Of a DNA stretch of 64,000 bases, positions 1-34,303 are shown in pieces (the stretch's first letter is position 1; every line of letters starts with the position of its first letter). Where the stretch lies: assembly GCA_038062835.1 (NCBI GenBank), contig JBBTWH010000006.1, positions 60-64,059 of the forward strand, given 5' to 3'. The position numbers and the translations under genes were made by a program. The stretch comes from Patescibacteria group bacterium. GTDB lineage: Bacteria; Patescibacteriota; Patescibacteriia; SG8-24; DYFX01. The notes beneath the pieces are model-generated. The model made no database searches. It had not been told where the DNA came from and saw nothing but the letters and a program-made list of their open reading frames with translations.

Positions 1-51
1 CTTGAACCCTCTGCGTGTAAAGCAGATGCTCTACCGTTGAGCTAAGCGTCC
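1..51 (-). tRNA. tRNA-Val(UAC), 3' end cut by window edge
   Basis: Reverse complement reads GGACGCT-TA-GCTC-AACGGTA-GAGC-A-TCTGC-TTTACAC-GCAGA then GGGTTCAAG (start of T-arm) at the window edge; anticodon TAC. Confidence 0.6.
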
Positions 52-388: not shown

Positions 389-652
389 ATGGCCAGCAAC
401 AAGATCTTCGTCGGCAGCCTGTCTTTCCAGGCCACCGAAGACGACCTCAAGGCCGCTTTCAGCCCGTTCGGTACGGTCGCTTCCGTGTTCATCCCGGTCG
501 ACCGTATGACGGGCCGCAAGCGCGGTTTCGGCTTCGTCGAGATGTCCTCCCCCGAGGAGGCCGCTCGCGCGATCGAGGAAATGAACGGCAAGGAAATTGT
601 CGGTCGCCCGGTCGCCCTGAACGAAGCGCAGCCCCGCCCGGAGCGCCAGTAA
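389..652 (+). CDS. RNA-recognition-motif (RRM) RNA-binding protein
   Basis: 87 aa; RNP-2 'IFVGSL' and RNP-1 'KRGFGFVEM' motifs typical of bacterial Rbp-type RRM proteins. Confidence 0.8.
   Translation: MASNKIFVGSLSFQATEDDLKAAFSPFGTVASVFIPVDRMTGRKRGFGFVEMSSPEEAARAIEEMNGKEIVGRPVALNEAQPRPERQ
586..652 (+). repeat. Direct repeat copy 1 (67 nt, last 22 codons + stop of the RRM gene)
   Basis: Identical to 1422-1488. Confidence 0.9.
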
Positions 653-668
653 AATGGCACCAGCCGAA

Positions 669-690
669 CAGCCCGCAAGGGCTGTTTTGC
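669..690 (+). terminator. Rho-independent terminator after the RRM gene
   Basis: CAGCCC-GCAA-GGGCTG hairpin followed by TTTT. Confidence 0.6.
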
Positions 691-719
691 TTTACGCCGC
701 AACGGCCTGGGGGTATATA
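691..719 (+). promoter_or_regulatory. Sigma70-like promoter for the inserted ORF
   Basis: TTTACG (691-696), 17-nt spacer, TATATA (714-719); RBS AAGGAG precedes ATG 750. Confidence 0.5.
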
Positions 720-749
720 GTAGGCAGGCTCTTTCAAGGAGAAAAGCGC

Positions 750-1376
750 ATGCCAAACCGCCCCGGACACTACCGCATCGACCTGTCGACCCTGGCTGGA
801 CGCACCTTCTCCGACATATTCGGGGATGAGATCCTGAAAGAAGATGAGGCCCGGGATAAAATCTGGGGATTCGTCTTCAAGCATGGCTGCGTCAAGGAGA
901 ATCCGTCCGATCATGACGGTGACGACTTGGGGTGGCTGATGCCGATCGAGATACCCGTCCTCTCGCCGGACGAGGAAATGCGCATCCGCCGCCAATTCGA
1001 CCCCCTGGGCAAAGGGTCGCTGACGTTCGACGATATGTATGACCCTTTCCGAGTCCGCGTGTCCTTCTCGACCGTCGGCGATGTCACGCTCGGAGAGGTC
1101 TTCGGCGGACGCCTGATGGCGGAGAGCGATTTCATGAACGCCTTCTCCGGTTTCATCAAGTCGCGCGGACTGAAGGATGGGACGATGACGGATGCGCAGT
1201 TGGCGCTCCTCCGCGCCGTGCCGCACAGGACGTGCAGCCGCTGTCAGGCGCTGGTGAAGCGGAATTATTGCCGCCAATGCGACGAGGTCTTCGACGAGGC
1301 CCACGCCGCGGGCTGTCCTCTGCCGAACGAACCAGGACCCGACGGTGACAACCATCGCGGGCATCGTACCTACTGA
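750..1376 (+). CDS. Hypothetical protein with C-terminal Cys-rich (zinc-ribbon-like) motif; lies between the 67-bp direct repeats
   Basis: ATG at 750 in frame with track ORF 654-1376; own promoter and RBS; C-terminus 'CSRCQALVKRNYCRQCDEVFDEAHAAGC'. Confidence 0.5.
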   Translation: MPNRPGHYRIDLSTLAGRTFSDIFGDEILKEDEARDKIWGFVFKHGCVKENPSDHDGDDLGWLMPIEIPVLSPDEEMRIRRQFDPLGKGSLTFDDMYDPFRVRVSFSTVGDVTLGEVFGGRLMAESDFMNAFSGFIKSRGLKDGTMTDAQLALLRAVPHRTCSRCQALVKRNYCRQCDEVFDEAHAAGCPLPNEPGPDGDNHRGHRTY

Positions 1377-1397
1377 CCGCAAGAGCGGTCTTTTTTT
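1375..1397 (+). terminator. Rho-independent terminator of the inserted ORF
   Basis: GACCGC-AAGA-GCGGTC followed by TTTTTTT. Confidence 0.65.
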
Positions 1398-1421
1398 CGG
1401 AGCGAAAGCACATGACGCTCC

Positions 1422-1488
1422 CGGCAAGGAAATTGTCGGTCGCCCGGTCGCCCTGAACGAAGCGCAGCCCCGCCCGGAGCGCCAGTAA
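1422..1488 (+). repeat. Direct repeat copy 2 (orphan copy of the RRM gene 3' end)
   Basis: 67 nt identical to 586-652, no upstream RRM coding context; followed by terminator. Confidence 0.9.
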
Positions 1489-1497
1489 GCTCCCTCG

Positions 1498-1521
1498 AAA
1501 CGCCCCTCACGGGGCGTTTTG
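1498..1521 (+). terminator. Rho-independent terminator after repeat copy 2
   Basis: ACGCCCC-TCAC-GGGGCGT followed by TTTT. Confidence 0.6.
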
Positions 1522-1581: not shown

Positions 1582-2163
1582 ATGAAGACCATTACCGCAT
1601 TCGCACTGGCCTGCTGTCTCGCTTCCGTCCCTGCCTCGGCGCGCGCCGAAGAGCCGGAGCGGACGACCTACGTCACCCTGGAACAGCAGACCGTCCTCGT
1701 CGATGGCGAGGTCGTGCCGGCCATCGACGGCACGATCGTCAGGACGCTCCACGGTCCGCTGGGCCTCTACACCTTCTTCTACGTCGACCGCGCGTACGCC
1801 GAAGCCGTCGTCGGCCCGTCCTTTTCCCCGACCGCGTGGCTGACTGTCGCGCTCGGCGCGGGTGTCGAGCAGGCGGAGGAAGGATCGTGGCGCGTCGGCG
1901 GCCTGCTCTGGATGGGCCGCGCGCGCTGGACGTCCGTCACCTTGCTCGAGACCGGCGCGTCAGGCTTCTGGGGACGCACCGAGTTCGCCTGGCGGCCCGC
2001 GCCGTGGGCGGGCATCGGCGTCCTCGGCGACCTCGGCCTCGGCGTCGGCCCGCGCCTCGAGCTGCGAGTGCCAAGCCTCCCCGTCCAGATCTGGGGCGCC
2101 TCGCTCTATGATTGGAAAGAGGAGCGTCCGGCGGCGGCCTTCGGCGTGCGGCTCGACCTCTGA
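1582..2163 (+). CDS. Secreted hypothetical protein (signal peptide)
   Basis: N-terminal 'MKTITAFALACCLASVPASARA' signal peptide; Gly/Trp-rich beta-type sequence; terminator follows. Confidence 0.5.
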   Translation: MKTITAFALACCLASVPASARAEEPERTTYVTLEQQTVLVDGEVVPAIDGTIVRTLHGPLGLYTFFYVDRAYAEAVVGPSFSPTAWLTVALGAGVEQAEEGSWRVGGLLWMGRARWTSVTLLETGASGFWGRTEFAWRPAPWAGIGVLGDLGLGVGPRLELRVPSLPVQIWGASLYDWKEERPAAAFGVRLDL

Positions 2164-2880: not shown

Positions 2881-2967
2881 GCGGTCGTGGCGAAATTGGC
2901 AGACGCACTACCTTGAGGTGGTAACGCCCGCAAGGGCATGAGGGTTCAAGTCCCTCCGACCGCACCA
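2881..2967 (+). tRNA. tRNA-Leu(GAG), class II with long variable arm, CCA encoded
   Basis: Acceptor GCGGTCG/CGACCGC, anticodon loop TTGAGGT, T-arm GGGTTCAAGTCCC, 3' ACCA. Confidence 0.85.
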
Positions 2968-11352: not shown

Positions 11353-11739
11353 TCAGTTGGAGAGGCCGTCGTCCTTGGAGGCGCGGCGCCGGAGGAGCAG
11401 GTATGCCTGGCTGAGCGGATGCTCGGCTTCGCCCGAGAGCGGGTTCCATCTGAGGATCACGCGTTCGTCGCCCCAGATGAGGGCGTAGGTCCAGTCGGTG
11501 CCGCTGGCGTCAGTGCGGCCGACGAAGGCGAAGTTCGATCCGGCGACGCGGCCGCGGAACGCCTCGGCGCGGAAGCCGGAGGCGGGAATCGACGGCTCAT
11601 AGGCCTCGACGACGAACGGGCCTTCGCGGAGCGCGGCGAGGAAGCGCTCGGAGAGCCGACGGTTGACTCGGCGATCGGCGACGTAGGCGCTGGCGATGGC
11701 GGTCGCGGCGGCTCCAAGGAGCCAGTAGAACACTCGCAT
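11353..11739 (-). CDS. Hypothetical membrane-anchored protein (paralog-array member)
   Basis: N-terminal TM helix then Arg-rich 'RRVNRRLSERFL' segment as in neighbours. Confidence 0.4.
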   Translation of the reverse strand: MRVFYWLLGAAATAIASAYVADRRVNRRLSERFLAALREGPFVVEAYEPSIPASGFRAEAFRGRVAGSNFAFVGRTDASGTDWTYALIWGDERVILRWNPLSGEAEHPLSQAYLLLRRRASKDDGLSN

Positions 11740-11813
11740 GATCGGCCTCCTTTCAAATGATCCGCTTTCACGTTCTCATGACACGCGCTTGCCCGTCAAA
11801 GAAAAAGAGGCCT

Positions 11814-12258
11814 CTAAGAGGCCTCGCTATCGGGTTCGACCATCGGATATTTCTTCCGCAGCGCGCGGTAGATCCCGACAAACGGATGTCCGCCATCCTT
11901 GGACGTCTTGATCTCAGCATAGAACATCTCGCGTCCGGAACCGTCAAAGGCGTCACCGTGACCGAGGAAGAGGTGGTACCCTTCGGTGTCCCGGAAAGGA
12001 CGAAAGAGCCGGGTCAGGCAGAACGGCAGCGCGCCGGCCGTGCCGGTGAAGCTGTCGAGGAAGCCGCGGCCAATCGACGATTCTAAACGGAAGAACTCAG
12101 CGCGCAACTGGCCGTCGGCGGCGGCGTGCAGGAACGCACGCATCAGCAATCGGCGGTTCCGCCAGCGGCGGACGGTCTTGGGCGTCGGCAGGAGCTTGAA
12201 GGGGCCGACCAGGCCGAAGCACATCGCGATGAGGTAGATGAAACGGCCGACCTTACGC
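11814..12258 (-). CDS. Hypothetical membrane-anchored protein (paralog-array member)
   Basis: Start at internal ATG (MRKVGRFIYL...); TM helix then 'RRLLMRAFLHAA' resembling 'RRLMLRYFM' of 14258-14719. Confidence 0.4.
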
Positions 12259-12801
12259 ATGATGCCTCCCTTGCGACCGCAGGCGCGCCTCGCGCCTATG
12301 GCCGCGTTCGTCGAAGTACGAGACGTGGAGGCCGCCGACGCGGAGATCCTCGAGTCCGGCGAAGTACGCATCCCAGCGCACCTGCGTGACGGGCGTTTCC
12401 ATGGACGCGGAGGCAGCGATGGCGCCATCGACGTAGACGCACAGGACCGTGTGGAGCGTCTTGCCAACGCGCCGCTGGGTCTCGACGTACAGGAGGCGCC
12501 CGAAGGCGTCGCCGGTCGAACGCACCAGCGCCGTCTCGTAGGACATGACCAGGGCCTCGGAGATCGTGGTCACGTGGGGCTGGGTGGAGTACGCCATCGC
12601 CTCGCGGGCGATGCGGTTGAACTCCGCTTCATCGAGCCTCGGAGAGAAGCTCGGTGGCGGCTTTTCCGCCTCATCGCCCTTCGGGAAGAGGTCCTCATGG
12701 AGGAGCGCCCCGAGCGTCAGCGCCAGAGGTATCAGGTACAGGAATAGTAGGACGTACAAACCCGCAAGGACCGCGACGATGACGAGAATGAGCTTCAGCA
12801 T
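12253..12801 (-). CDS. Hypothetical membrane protein (2 TM + cytoplasmic domain)
   Basis: Start at MLKLIL...; hydrophobic N-terminus. Confidence 0.4.
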   Translation of the reverse strand: MLKLILVIVAVLAGLYVLLFLYLIPLALTLGALLHEDLFPKGDEAEKPPPSFSPRLDEAEFNRIAREAMAYSTQPHVTTISEALVMSYETALVRSTGDAFGRLLYVETQRRVGKTLHTVLCVYVDGAIAASASMETPVTQVRWDAYFAGLEDLRVGGLHVSYFDERGHRREARLRSQGRHHA

Positions 12802-12835
12802 CCAGACCTCCTTTGCTGAACGCCTCAAGCTAACA

Positions 12836-12870
12836 AAAAACCGGCCTCAGGTCAAGCCTGGGCCGGCGCG
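12836..12870 (-). terminator. Terminator with GTCAAGG-type loop
   Basis: AAAAAACCGGCC-TCAGGTCAAGCCTG-GGCCGG. Confidence 0.5.
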
Positions 12871-13373
12871 GTCGTGTCGGACACGGGAGATTCAAGGGGG
12901 TCGACGTGGCGCGCGGCCGCCGATTCCGCATCCGAGGCGGGCACCGACAGTTCCGGCGCGGACGGGAGTTCCCCGCGCGCCGCCTTGAGCAGAGACTGGA
13001 TCGACGCGACCGGGATGGCGTTCCCGACGAAGGTCGCTTCGACGCGGAGCGTGCGGACGCCCGTCTTCGGCTGATGCAGCTCATAGAGCACCCACCATCG
13101 GAGCCGCATCCGGCTCGTGTCGAGGATGAGCGACAGCCTGCGCTCGCCGTATCGTACGTTGAACATCGTATCGTGCGCGCGATCCTCGTCGGACCGCAGC
13201 GGCGAGCTGAACGCGATCTCCCGTGCGGCGACGGGATCGGCGAGCAGGCGGACGAGGTCAGCCATCTCGCCGAGAATCTTTCTTCGGTCACGGAGGCGCA
13301 GGCGCCGCGCCCTCACGAGCGCGAAGGCGGCGAACGACAGGGCGATGCAGATGAGAACGATCAGAAACCACAT
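12852..13373 (-). CDS. Hypothetical single-pass membrane protein, paralog B
   Basis: AGGAGG RBS; 'MWFLIVL...' TM; clear paralog of 14258-14719 ('SDEDRAHDTMF' vs 'SDDDRAHAAIF'). Confidence 0.5.
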   Translation of the reverse strand: MWFLIVLICIALSFAAFALVRARRLRLRDRRKILGEMADLVRLLADPVAAREIAFSSPLRSDEDRAHDTMFNVRYGERRLSLILDTSRMRLRWWVLYELHQPKTGVRTLRVEATFVGNAIPVASIQSLLKAARGELPSAPELSVPASDAESAAARHVDPLESPVSDTTAPAQA

Positions 13374-14169: not shown

Positions 14170-14206
14170 GAACTCCTTCCGATGGGATGGAGACGAAGAT
14201 ATACGA

Positions 14207-14240
14207 AAAACCGGCTTCCGTCAAGGAAGCCGGTCTTACC
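14207..14240 (-). terminator. Terminator AAAAACCGGCTTCC-GTCAAGG-AAGCCGG (copy 1 of identical 33-mer)
   Basis: Identical to 14753-14786. Confidence 0.6.
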
Positions 14241-14257: not shown

Positions 14258-14719
14258 CTAGTTGGGGTCGACGGGCGCGGAGACTGTCGGTTCCGGCGCG
14301 GGCAGGAGTTCCCCGTGAGCCGCCTTGAGCAGAGCTTGGATGGACTCGACTGGGATGTCGTCCCCGACGAATGTCTCTCGGACGCGACTGAGGATAAGGA
14401 CGACATTATTCTCCCGATGCTGCAGCTCGTACATGACCGACCAACGGACGTGCCGGCGGCGCGTGTCTAGGATGAACGACAGCTGGCGCTGGCCATGCCG
14501 CGCGGTGAATATCGCGGCGTGCGCGCGGTCGTCATCGGACAGGAGCGGCGGCGTGAGAATGACTTCGCCCGCGCTGGCGGGATCGGCGAGCATGCGGACG
14601 AAGTCCTTCATGAAGTAGCGTAGCATCAGGCGTCGGGAGCGGCTAAGACTACGGTTCAGCTTAATTACGCTGGCGAAGTAGAACGACGCGATGACGACGA
14701 GAGCGAGGATGAACCACAT
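14258..14719 (-). CDS. Hypothetical single-pass membrane protein, paralog A
   Basis: GGAGG RBS before ATG (MWFILALV...); paralog of 12852-13373. Confidence 0.5.
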   Translation of the reverse strand: MWFILALVVIASFYFASVIKLNRSLSRSRRLMLRYFMKDFVRMLADPASAGEVILTPPLLSDDDRAHAAIFTARHGQRQLSFILDTRRRHVRWSVMYELQHRENNVVLILSRVRETFVGDDIPVESIQALLKAAHGELLPAPEPTVSAPVDPN

Positions 14720-14752
14720 GCGGACCTCCTTCAAGGTGCTGAAGGCTAAGCT

Positions 14753-14786
14753 AAACCAAAAACCGGCTTCCGTCAAGGAAGCCGGT
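14753..14786 (-). terminator. Terminator AAAAACCGGCTTCC-GTCAAGG-AAGCCGG (copy 2)
   Basis: 33 nt identical to 14207-14240. Confidence 0.6.
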
Positions 14787-14799
14787 CTTATCGGCGCGT

Positions 14800-34227: not shown

Positions 34228-34303
34228 TGGTAGGCCCGGATGGATTCGAACCATCAACCGCCGAGATATAAGCTCGGTGCTCTGACCGTTGAGCTACGGG
34301 CCC
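34228..34303 (-). tRNA. tRNA-Ile(UAU)
   Basis: Minus strand: GGGCCCG-TA-GCTCAACGGTCAGAGC-A-CCGAG-CTTATAT-CTCGG-CGGTT-GATGG-TTCGAAT-CCATC-CGGGCCT-A-CCA. Confidence 0.8.

Follow-up and report, generated by a model that had tools for sequence, protein, structure and literature searches.

A strain-specific 836-bp insertion with a duplicated RRM gene tail in an uncultured Patescibacteria group bacterium, and its probable capture through one-sided homology

Here we describe an insertion beside a small RNA-recognition-motif (RRM) gene in a Patescibacteria group bacterium (assembly GCA_038062835.1). The locus lies at the beginning of a 64,000-nucleotide (nt) stretch of contig JBBTWH010000006.1 (positions 60 to 64,059), which we call the window and whose own coordinates are used below. 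The last 67 nt of the RRM gene recur downstream as an exact direct repeat, and between the two copies there is a gene of 208 amino acids (aa), hereafter the cargo, which ends in a terminator of its own. We consider it probable, though far from certain, that recombination with the RRM gene as its anchor captured DNA of a related RRM locus, and that the resulting 836-bp unit is a recent, strain-specific insertion. The features on which this interpretation is built are the following:

389..652, + strand: RRM gene, 87 aa, intact (RRM_1, PF00076, E=1.1e-22)
586..652, + strand: repeat copy 1, 67 nt at 100% identity, the functional 3' end of the RRM gene including its TAA stop
653..1421, + strand: unique part of the insert, 769 bp; adding one repeat copy gives the 836-bp unit, which no related locus has
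662..691, + strand: terminator now ending the RRM transcript, CAGCCC-GCAA-GGGCTG type (fold -19.7 kcal/mol, z -3.8)
691..719, + strand: putative promoter-like stretch, TTTACG-17-TATATA with an overlapping TATAGT
750..1376, + strand: cargo gene, 208 aa, with an AGGAG ribosome-binding site at 738-742
1375..1397, + strand: intrinsic terminator of the cargo gene, with a 6-bp stem, a GAGA-type loop and a T7 run (fold of 1375-1390, -10.8 kcal/mol)
1398..1421, + strand: 24 nt, CGGAGCGAAAGCACATGACGCTCC, ending at the non-homologous right junction 1421/1422
1422..1488, + strand: repeat copy 2, the orphan RRM tail, running into the native downstream sequence 1489-1607 exactly as in the empty site of locus L008
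1495..1522, + strand: native RRM terminator, CGCCCC-TCAC-GGGGCG type, displaced 836 bp from its gene (fold -20.9 kcal/mol, z -5.3)

The repeat and the empty sites

When the window was compared with itself, positions 586-652 and 1422-1488 proved identical at 67 of 67 sites, in direct orientation and with their starts 836 nt apart; the exact recurrence reported in the initial annotation of this DNA is thus confirmed. The repeated stretch reads CGGCAAGG...CGCCAGTAA. Bases outside the two copies differ (A versus C before, AATGG versus GCTCC after), so the repeat is exactly 67 nt long and ends with the stop codon. In the whole 64 kb, same-strand repeated 24-mers come from two sources only, this repeat and a ~35-nt hairpin near 14204/14756, and such rarity excludes a chance origin of the 67-nt repeat.

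About 40 distinct orthologous loci (handles beginning with L) were gathered by look-ups of the exact RRM protein and of three near-identical variants, together with a GTDB scan. In these relatives (L001, L003-L006, L009, L010, L012, L023-L052), the RRM stop is directly followed by a terminator of the type found at 1495-1522 in the window. Within the window's own sublineage (L001, L004-L006, L009, L012), this post-stop terminator is GCTCC...ACGCCCC-TCAC-GGGGCGTTTTG, the very one that stands behind copy 2. None of the 40+ orthologous loci contains a second copy of the RRM tail, diverged or not, which makes the insertion a one-off event. Moreover, once 653-1488 are deleted, the window sequence agrees with the empty site of L008 over 771 nt (0 mismatches). 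Since the orthologous loci are empty and the deletion restores the L008 sequence, the 836-bp unit is an insertion, and one that only this population has. Exact scans with a 34-mer of the RRM tail returned one locus in GTDB genomes (L012, an empty site), one in JGI metagenomes (the same as L003) and zero matches on viral contigs; these were too few loci for a test of site reuse, for which the look-ups of RRM variants were used instead.

The three genes of the arrangement correspond to MEK7545778-80 (the second and third being AAB554_01730 and AAB554_01735) of a Patescibacteria metagenome-assembled genome. Base for base, the same arrangement is found in two other assemblies, namely GCA_964357585.1 (L002/L011) and L007 (Hainich groundwater 0.1-um, H41 replicate R1). 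We would also like to comment on L008, which comes from the same aquifer (replicate R2) and has a coverage of ~2x. There, the RRM gene, the repeat and the native terminator are followed by a 10-N gap (870-879) and then by the cassette, starting from window position 668. This scaffold may reflect either pop-out variants in the population or a 67-nt repeat mis-resolved at ~2x coverage.

Copy 2 had been described as an orphan with no coding context upstream. Indeed, no RRM homology was found upstream of it; its reading frame, however, is open as far as a GTG at 1345, giving a 47-aa open reading frame (ORF) that the gene caller predicted in L007 and that is probably meaningless. The perfect identity of the copies had also been taken as a sign of a recent event. 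This argument is weakened by the presence of the exact 67-mer in eight independent lineages in which the flanking genes show no more than 78-88% identity, and the identity of the copies could also come from the donor's own tail or from conversion between copies that are 836 bp apart. On the other hand, no constraint acts on the orphan copy and only one population has the insertion, which leaves a recent event as the likeliest reading.

As for the ends of the insert, no inverted repeats pair 653-680 with 1395-1421. Beyond the terminator hairpin, no imperfect inverted-repeat (attC-like) site was seen at 1377-1421, where no dedicated attC model was run, and the traits of an integron (an attC-like cassette end, an integrase nearby) are absent. 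The 24 nt at the right end (1398-1421) match neither the related loci nor any other part of the window. The last bases of the insert (GGAG..CATGACGC) resemble the ribosome-binding site and start of the ORF195 gene in L025, L027 and L031; this match was discarded as too short to count.

The foreign terminator, the RRM anchor and the cargo gene

All three terminators proposed in the initial annotation fold as claimed (662-691, 1375-1390 with its T7 run, and 1495-1522). The first of them is foreign to the place where it stands. After the RRM stop, the insert reads AATGGCACC..AACAGCCCGCAAGGGCTGTTTTGCTTTACG (GGCAC type) and not GCTCC. Behind its own RRM stop, L029 has AACGGCGCC..AACAGCCCGCAAGGGCTGTTTTGCTTTGCG, identical to the window insert at 29 of 30 positions, with offsets from the stop of 16 versus 14 nt. 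Similarly, the insert terminator matches the post-RRM terminator of L046 at 25/26 positions and the window's native terminator at only 21/26. We considered whether the L029-type match could be a generic GCAA-loop hairpin and rejected this: the 10-mer core occurs three times in the window, but the 27-mer of the insert terminator, with <=3 mismatches allowed, only once. Judged by its letters, the left end of the insert (653-~696, the first ~45 nt) is an RRM 3' untranslated region (UTR) and terminator allele of another sublineage, and identity drops from 100% to ~73% exactly at the RRM stop codon.

The stems of the RRM terminators vary compensatorily between lineages (CGCCCC/GGGGCG, CGTCCC/GGGACG, CAGCCC/GGGCTG and CAACCCC/GGGGTTG), with TCAC or GCAA as the loop. 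Because the shape is kept through these compensatory changes, the terminators can be regarded as alleles of one element. The hairpin sits between an A-tract and a T-tract and may work in both directions. It is also important to note that the RRM 3'UTR alleles are shuffled among lineages, GCTCC being combined with either a TCAC or a GCAA loop (L033 versus L034). In the window, the RRM gene and its 5' flank group with GCTCC-type lineages (98.2% identity to L004 and 96.7% to L012), which makes the GCTCC-type terminator the expected native one; no relative is near-identical to the window on either flank.

The RRM gene itself, the putative anchor, is nearly invariant. Over 264 nt, it shows 0-3 nucleotide differences to L001, L004, L005, L006 and L009 and 4 to L012 (98.5%), while identity to the window falls to 78-88% in the flanking genes of those lineages. 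Conservation is unusually high in the ~250-nt 5' leader as well: leader and gene together (136-652) are 96.7% identical to L012, and this region has no Rfam match. In more distant groups, synonymous changes accumulate in the gene (19-27 differences). The conservation of gene and leader may reflect either recent allele sharing by recombination or a structured regulatory leader.

Between the foreign terminator and the cargo, a promoter had been placed at 691-719. The stretch is indeed promoter-like and may serve as one; it agrees with the consensus at 8 of 12 positions, and a consensus-based promoter scan of the window did not return it. In empty lineages, the RRM terminator is followed by the tRNA-Leu promoter, and TATAGT is the -10 element there.

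The 208-codon ORF reported at 750-1376 stands up to scrutiny. Its codon score is frame-specific (0.215 in frame versus -0.12 and -0.20 out of frame), its GC content at third codon positions (GC3) is 0.78 against a genome mean of 0.77, and both of its halves have distant homologues; for these reasons, we judge the ORF to be genuinely coding. The codon usage is host-like. At full length, the protein matched only itself among 5.8e9 clusters, and no close relative was found among ~15 billion proteins. An exhaustive HMMER search recovered distant homologues that cover each half separately; the clusters of these homologues bear neither names nor taxa. Residues 1-143 resemble P0011, P0029 and P0031, with two "..vFG....lW.fl...G" motifs. 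P0031 gives a sub-threshold match to SWIB (SWIB/MDM2, PF02201; E=0.003, 17.7 bits versus a cut-off of 25), and the cargo itself has no Pfam match at E<=0.1, so that its N-terminal module might be called weakly SWIB-like.

The C-terminal part (residues 146-208) belongs to a family of ~65-aa proteins with the consensus MPxL...CxxC...NYCRxCDEFF..GH...C....HxGHRTY-COOH. Eight conserved Cys and His residues (C162, C165, C174, C177, H185, C189, H202 and H205) are potential metal ligands. As a small stand-alone gene, this module occurs on seven IMG/VR contigs, and on one of them, 180 kb long, it adjoins NAMPT and PRPP synthetase genes typical of large phages. The GHRTY-ending family, for which there is no Pfam model (window 1185-1373; L015 441-641; L016-L022 around 4001), is found in metagenomic bacteria and on large phage contigs. 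An AlphaFold2 (AF2) model of the C-terminal domain built from the alignment had a predicted local distance difference test (pLDDT) score of 77, while a single-sequence model of the whole cargo reached 39.5. The best PDB matches of the C-terminal model were the zinc ribbons of NrdR and Rpb9, both insignificant (E>2), and Pfam Zn_ribbon_8 met the homologue P0002 at E=0.07. The cargo gave nothing significant against PDB sequences, Pfam and PHROG, including any recombinase or transposase family. Related loci were searched for with the C-terminal alignment, the full-length one having no block conserved enough. The idea that the cargo and the neighbouring ORF193 are diverged products of a tandem duplication was rejected, as there is no similarity between them. 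If we had to guess, the cargo would be a small factor that binds nucleic acids or proteins, has a phage-associated ancestry and is expressed independently, in the manner of a moron.

Capture through one-sided homology and competing explanations

The homology of the insert with the RRM locus continues on the left past the repeat, while the right junction (1421/1422) is non-homologous. Such a configuration points to recombination anchored on one arm only. The donor fragment would have comprised, in this order, an RRM tail, the RRM terminator of the donor, a promoter, and the 208-aa gene followed by its own terminator and another ~24 nt. The nearly invariant RRM coding sequence would have allowed its left side to pair with the recipient; its right side, which had no homology, would have been joined illegitimately.

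Two routes to this product can be proposed. In route (a), an illegitimate join of 1421 to RRM position 586 would have circularised the fragment, and the circle would then have integrated via a single RecA-type crossover in the 67-nt tail (Campbell-type integration), duplicating the homologous segment on both sides. Route (b) would be homology-facilitated illegitimate recombination (HFIR), in which the heterologous 3' end of the invading strand would have been ligated to the displaced resident strand at 586. The expected outcome is an intact RRM gene that would now use an imported terminator, a native tail and terminator stranded as an orphan, and a cargo that would act as an independent promoter-ORF-terminator unit. 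The 67-nt direct repeats would, in addition, allow a pop-out that restores the empty site exactly. Entry of the DNA by natural transformation is plausible for the phylum: Patescibacteria have conserved com genes, and Saccharibacteria take up DNA by natural transformation and integrate it by homology (PMC10633639; PMC12455944).

Several observations agree with a related donor. Because the RRM nucleotide sequence is nearly invariant across lineages, such a donor could have contributed an identical tail. The step in identity at the stop codon is to be expected if the donor shared the ultra-conserved coding sequence and not the UTR, and the host-like codon usage of the cargo fits as well. The initial annotation had left two origins open. 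Homologous-recombination capture with the RRM tail as the arm is favoured by the empty sites, by the lack of diverged copies in relatives and by the foreign RRM 3'UTR and terminator at the left end. Insertion of a cassette with target duplication is not borne out, for there are no inverted repeats, no transposase or integrase and no other copies, and the left end is related to the target.

There are precedents for products of this kind. When Escherichia coli received DNA with one-sided homology, 56 of 60 integrants duplicated part of the homologous gene end, and in 14 sequenced clones the duplications measured 109-950 bp; their source was a recircularised molecule that had integrated by a single crossover (PMC3240628). 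For the orphan 3' modules of Rhs and type VI secretion system (T6SS) loci, HFIR has been put forward as an explanation (PMC5361080), and transformation-driven unequal sister-chromatid exchange is a further documented source of duplications (PMC3784515).

We are aware that several points weigh against this scenario. Neither a donor locus nor a circular intermediate was identified, and the postulated donor arrangement of RRM gene, L029-type terminator and cargo was not observed. A search for the cargo protein in other contexts with gene-tail duplications, an idea raised in the initial annotation, gave no second context. In the sampled lineages with L029/L046-type terminators, the tail departs from that of the window at 3 of its 67 positions; the donor would be either a mosaic (a window-type RRM gene with a foreign UTR) or an unsampled lineage, or the crossover would have taken place within the last ~10-25 nt, or the mismatches would have been corrected. 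A length of 67 nt is close to the shortest at which RecA recombines efficiently. The L008 scaffold lets the junction graph be read as an empty site plus a separate cassette, and routes (a) and (b) are indistinguishable from the product.

An unlikely alternative inverts the roles of the two sides. The cassette and the L029-type terminator would be resident, and the right block, from RRM position 586 through the native-type terminator and ORF193 and beyond, would have been imported from an L006/L008-like relative, with the anchor downstream (ORF193, tRNA-Leu or DAGK) and an illegitimate join at 1421/1422. The product would be symmetrical and its junctions identical to those we see; neither flank is near-identical in any relative, so similarity cannot name the native side, and the shuffling of RRM 3'UTR alleles (L033 versus L034) would be in keeping with such an import. 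However, a resident cargo is then required, yet no other lineage has one, which makes this history less parsimonious. The grouping of the window's RRM gene and 5' flank with the GCTCC-type L004 and L012 (98.2% and 96.7%, as given above) also argues against it.

One might suppose that the identity stopping exactly at the stop codon and the supply of a replacement terminator, as in attP-borne gene ends, betray an integrase-type site-specific element, intact or decayed, with an attachment site that imitates the final 67 nt of the RRM gene. A tyrosine integrase-bearing element does exist in this neighbourhood in the relative L053 (see below). Nevertheless, that integrase abuts the 3' end of tRNA-Leu and not the RRM gene, and the 836-bp unit contains no integrase, the cargo matching no recombinase family. 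The RRM tail is used as a site in 0 of the ~40 orthologous loci, its 34-mer lies on no viral contig, and nothing integrase-like appears among the annotated neighbour genes of L011. We consider an origin of this type quite improbable.

We likewise give little credence to an assembly reading of a mixture, that is, an empty-site chromosome accompanied by a separate 836-bp circle or tandem array, or two strain variants threaded through the 67-mer. L008 speaks in its favour, joining RRM gene, repeat and native terminator with 0 mismatches and placing the cassette after a 10-N gap, and a 67-nt repeat is longer than the common metaSPAdes k=55. But the integrated order recurs base for base in three assemblies (the window, GCA_964357585.1 and L007), the junction 1421/1422 has no shared k-mer and must exist in real molecules, and 67 nt are well inside a 150-nt read length. 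An 836-bp replicon would, furthermore, need a Rep function, of which the domain searches with the cargo gave no sign.

Very improbable, in our opinion, is a minimal mobile module with a 67-nt mimic of the RRM tail, which would cycle between circle and chromosome by means of host RecA or an unrecognised activity of its own 208-aa putative zinc-binding protein, L008 representing the excised state. If this were true, the unit would rank with the smallest known integrative elements, and cassette exchange among Patescibacteria would have a dedicated landing pad in the conserved RRM gene.

Finally, a transposon-like insertion with a 67-bp target-site duplication made by staggered cuts, suggested by the direct repeats of target sequence around the insert, is effectively refuted: 67 bp is far above the usual target duplications, there are no terminal inverted repeats and no transposase (Pfam, PHROG), the unit is single-copy in the window and in all collections, and its left end is, unlike a transposon end, homologous to the target's own downstream region in other lineages.

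The tRNA-Val/RRM/tRNA-Leu neighbourhood and known systems

Three further features place the insertion in its neighbourhood:

1..51, - strand: 5' part of a tRNA cut by the window edge at its 3' end (Rfam tRNA, 34.3 bits), orthologue of tRNA-Val(TAC)
1582..2163, + strand: hypothetical gene, 193 aa (ORF193), with a signal-peptide-like N-terminus, part of the variable interval between the RRM gene and tRNA-Leu
2881..2967, + strand: tRNA-Leu(GAG) orthologue bounding the variable interval (Rfam, 49 bits), aligned to the tRNA-Leu(gag) of L034, L046, L053 and L054

A tRNA-Val(tac) precedes the RRM gene at the same position in L053, L054, L029, L046, L005 and L034. For 2881-2967, ARAGORN gives an undefined anticodon, and it is the alignment that identifies this tRNA as a tRNA-Leu(GAG) orthologue; its anticodon stem has lost the uppermost pair through a G-to-A substitution at tRNA position 44, and a pair change in the T-stem is compensated. 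The tRNA-Leu gene is inverted in L005, L034 and L039-L042.

The interval between the RRM gene and tRNA-Leu (653-2880 in the window) may be empty or may contain an ORF193-195 homologue with or without a 164-192-aa membrane ORF, a pair of 103-aa and 184-aa ORFs, or a 173-aa ORF, depending on the lineage. The 193-aa gene, for example, is present in L001, L004, L006, L025, L027, L031, L032 and L052 and absent in L024, L029, L033, L035, L043 and L044. Since its content differs between lineages, this interval is a recombination-prone variable spot in the clade, and the insertion is one more event there.

On L011, the annotation has DAGK, bactofilin and HisK as neighbours, with no integrase-like or phage genes among them. 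In L053, a tyrosine integrase (377 aa) and an HTH_17 protein (11571-13354) directly follow the 3' end of tRNA-Leu(GAG), which indicates that L053 carries an integrative element at the tRNA next to the RRM locus; no direct repeat flanking the integrase region was found within the 8.6 kb of sequence.

Elsewhere in the window, two paralogous tandem genes on the - strand (12852-13373 and 14258-14776, 173 and 172 aa) share 72-82% nucleotide identity. Each is accompanied by one of the near-identical ~35-nt hairpins (14204-14238 and 14756-14790), the only other exact repeat of at least 24 nt in the window. A tRNA-Ile with the anticodon TAT (UAU), an uncommon bacterial way to read AUA, is predicted at 34228-34303.

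Several known systems resemble the insertion in part. Campbell-type integration, as seen in the lacZ-end duplications of E. coli (PMC3240628), also leaves heterologous DNA flanked by a direct duplication of part of a homologous gene end; its length equals that of the homology kept on the circle, with an intact gene on one side and an orphan piece on the other. Here, unlike in that experiment, the event is natural and took place in uncultured Patescibacteria, the duplication is 67 nt and not 109-950 bp, and the circle would be a conjecture from the product. HFIR in the natural transformation of Acinetobacter, S. pneumoniae and P. stutzeri (cited in PMC5361080 and PMC3240628) shares with our case one homologous anchor, one non-homologous junction and the capture of foreign DNA beside the anchor. 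Its classical products, however, usually lack the recipient DNA between anchor and joint, whereas here 67 nt of the anchor are duplicated. With the orphan 3' modules of Rhs, contact-dependent inhibition (CDI) and T6SS loci (PMC5361080), the insertion has in common an incoming module that would recombine via a conserved upstream coding region and an old 3' end that persists downstream; it differs from them in having no toxin-immunity logic, in a displaced piece identical to the kept tail and in being a single event and not an array.

Mobile elements offer further parallels. At their attL/attR sites, genomic islands and prophages carry a second copy of the end of a tRNA or protein gene, so that, as here, direct repeats of a gene 3' end surround the insert and the gene is reconstituted by insert-borne sequence; unlike them, the present unit has no integrase, is 0.8 kb long and sits at a site not reused in ~40 related loci. 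Phage morons are single genes with their own promoter and terminator inserted between other genes. The order of terminator, promoter, one ORF and terminator is alike in our case, and the family of the cargo's C-terminal module also occurs on large phage contigs; the insertion, however, resides in a bacterial chromosome and not in a prophage, with no phage genes nearby.

Overall, the kind of event is already known from experiments and comparative genomics, and we propose no new mechanism; the locus is an unusually clear natural instance from an uncultured phylum. It offers a legible example of how streamlined, uncultured Patescibacteria gain a single gene, with an ultra-conserved small gene beside a variable interval serving as the homology foothold. 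The insertion product keeps a scar that is both datable and reversible. Of minor, independent interest are the two uncharacterised modules of the cargo. The tRNA-Val/RRM/tRNA-Leu neighbourhood is flagged as a spot of gene exchange in this clade, and the case supports the view that uptake based on homologous recombination, and not the enzymes of dedicated mobile elements, shapes the accessory content of the candidate phyla radiation (CPR).

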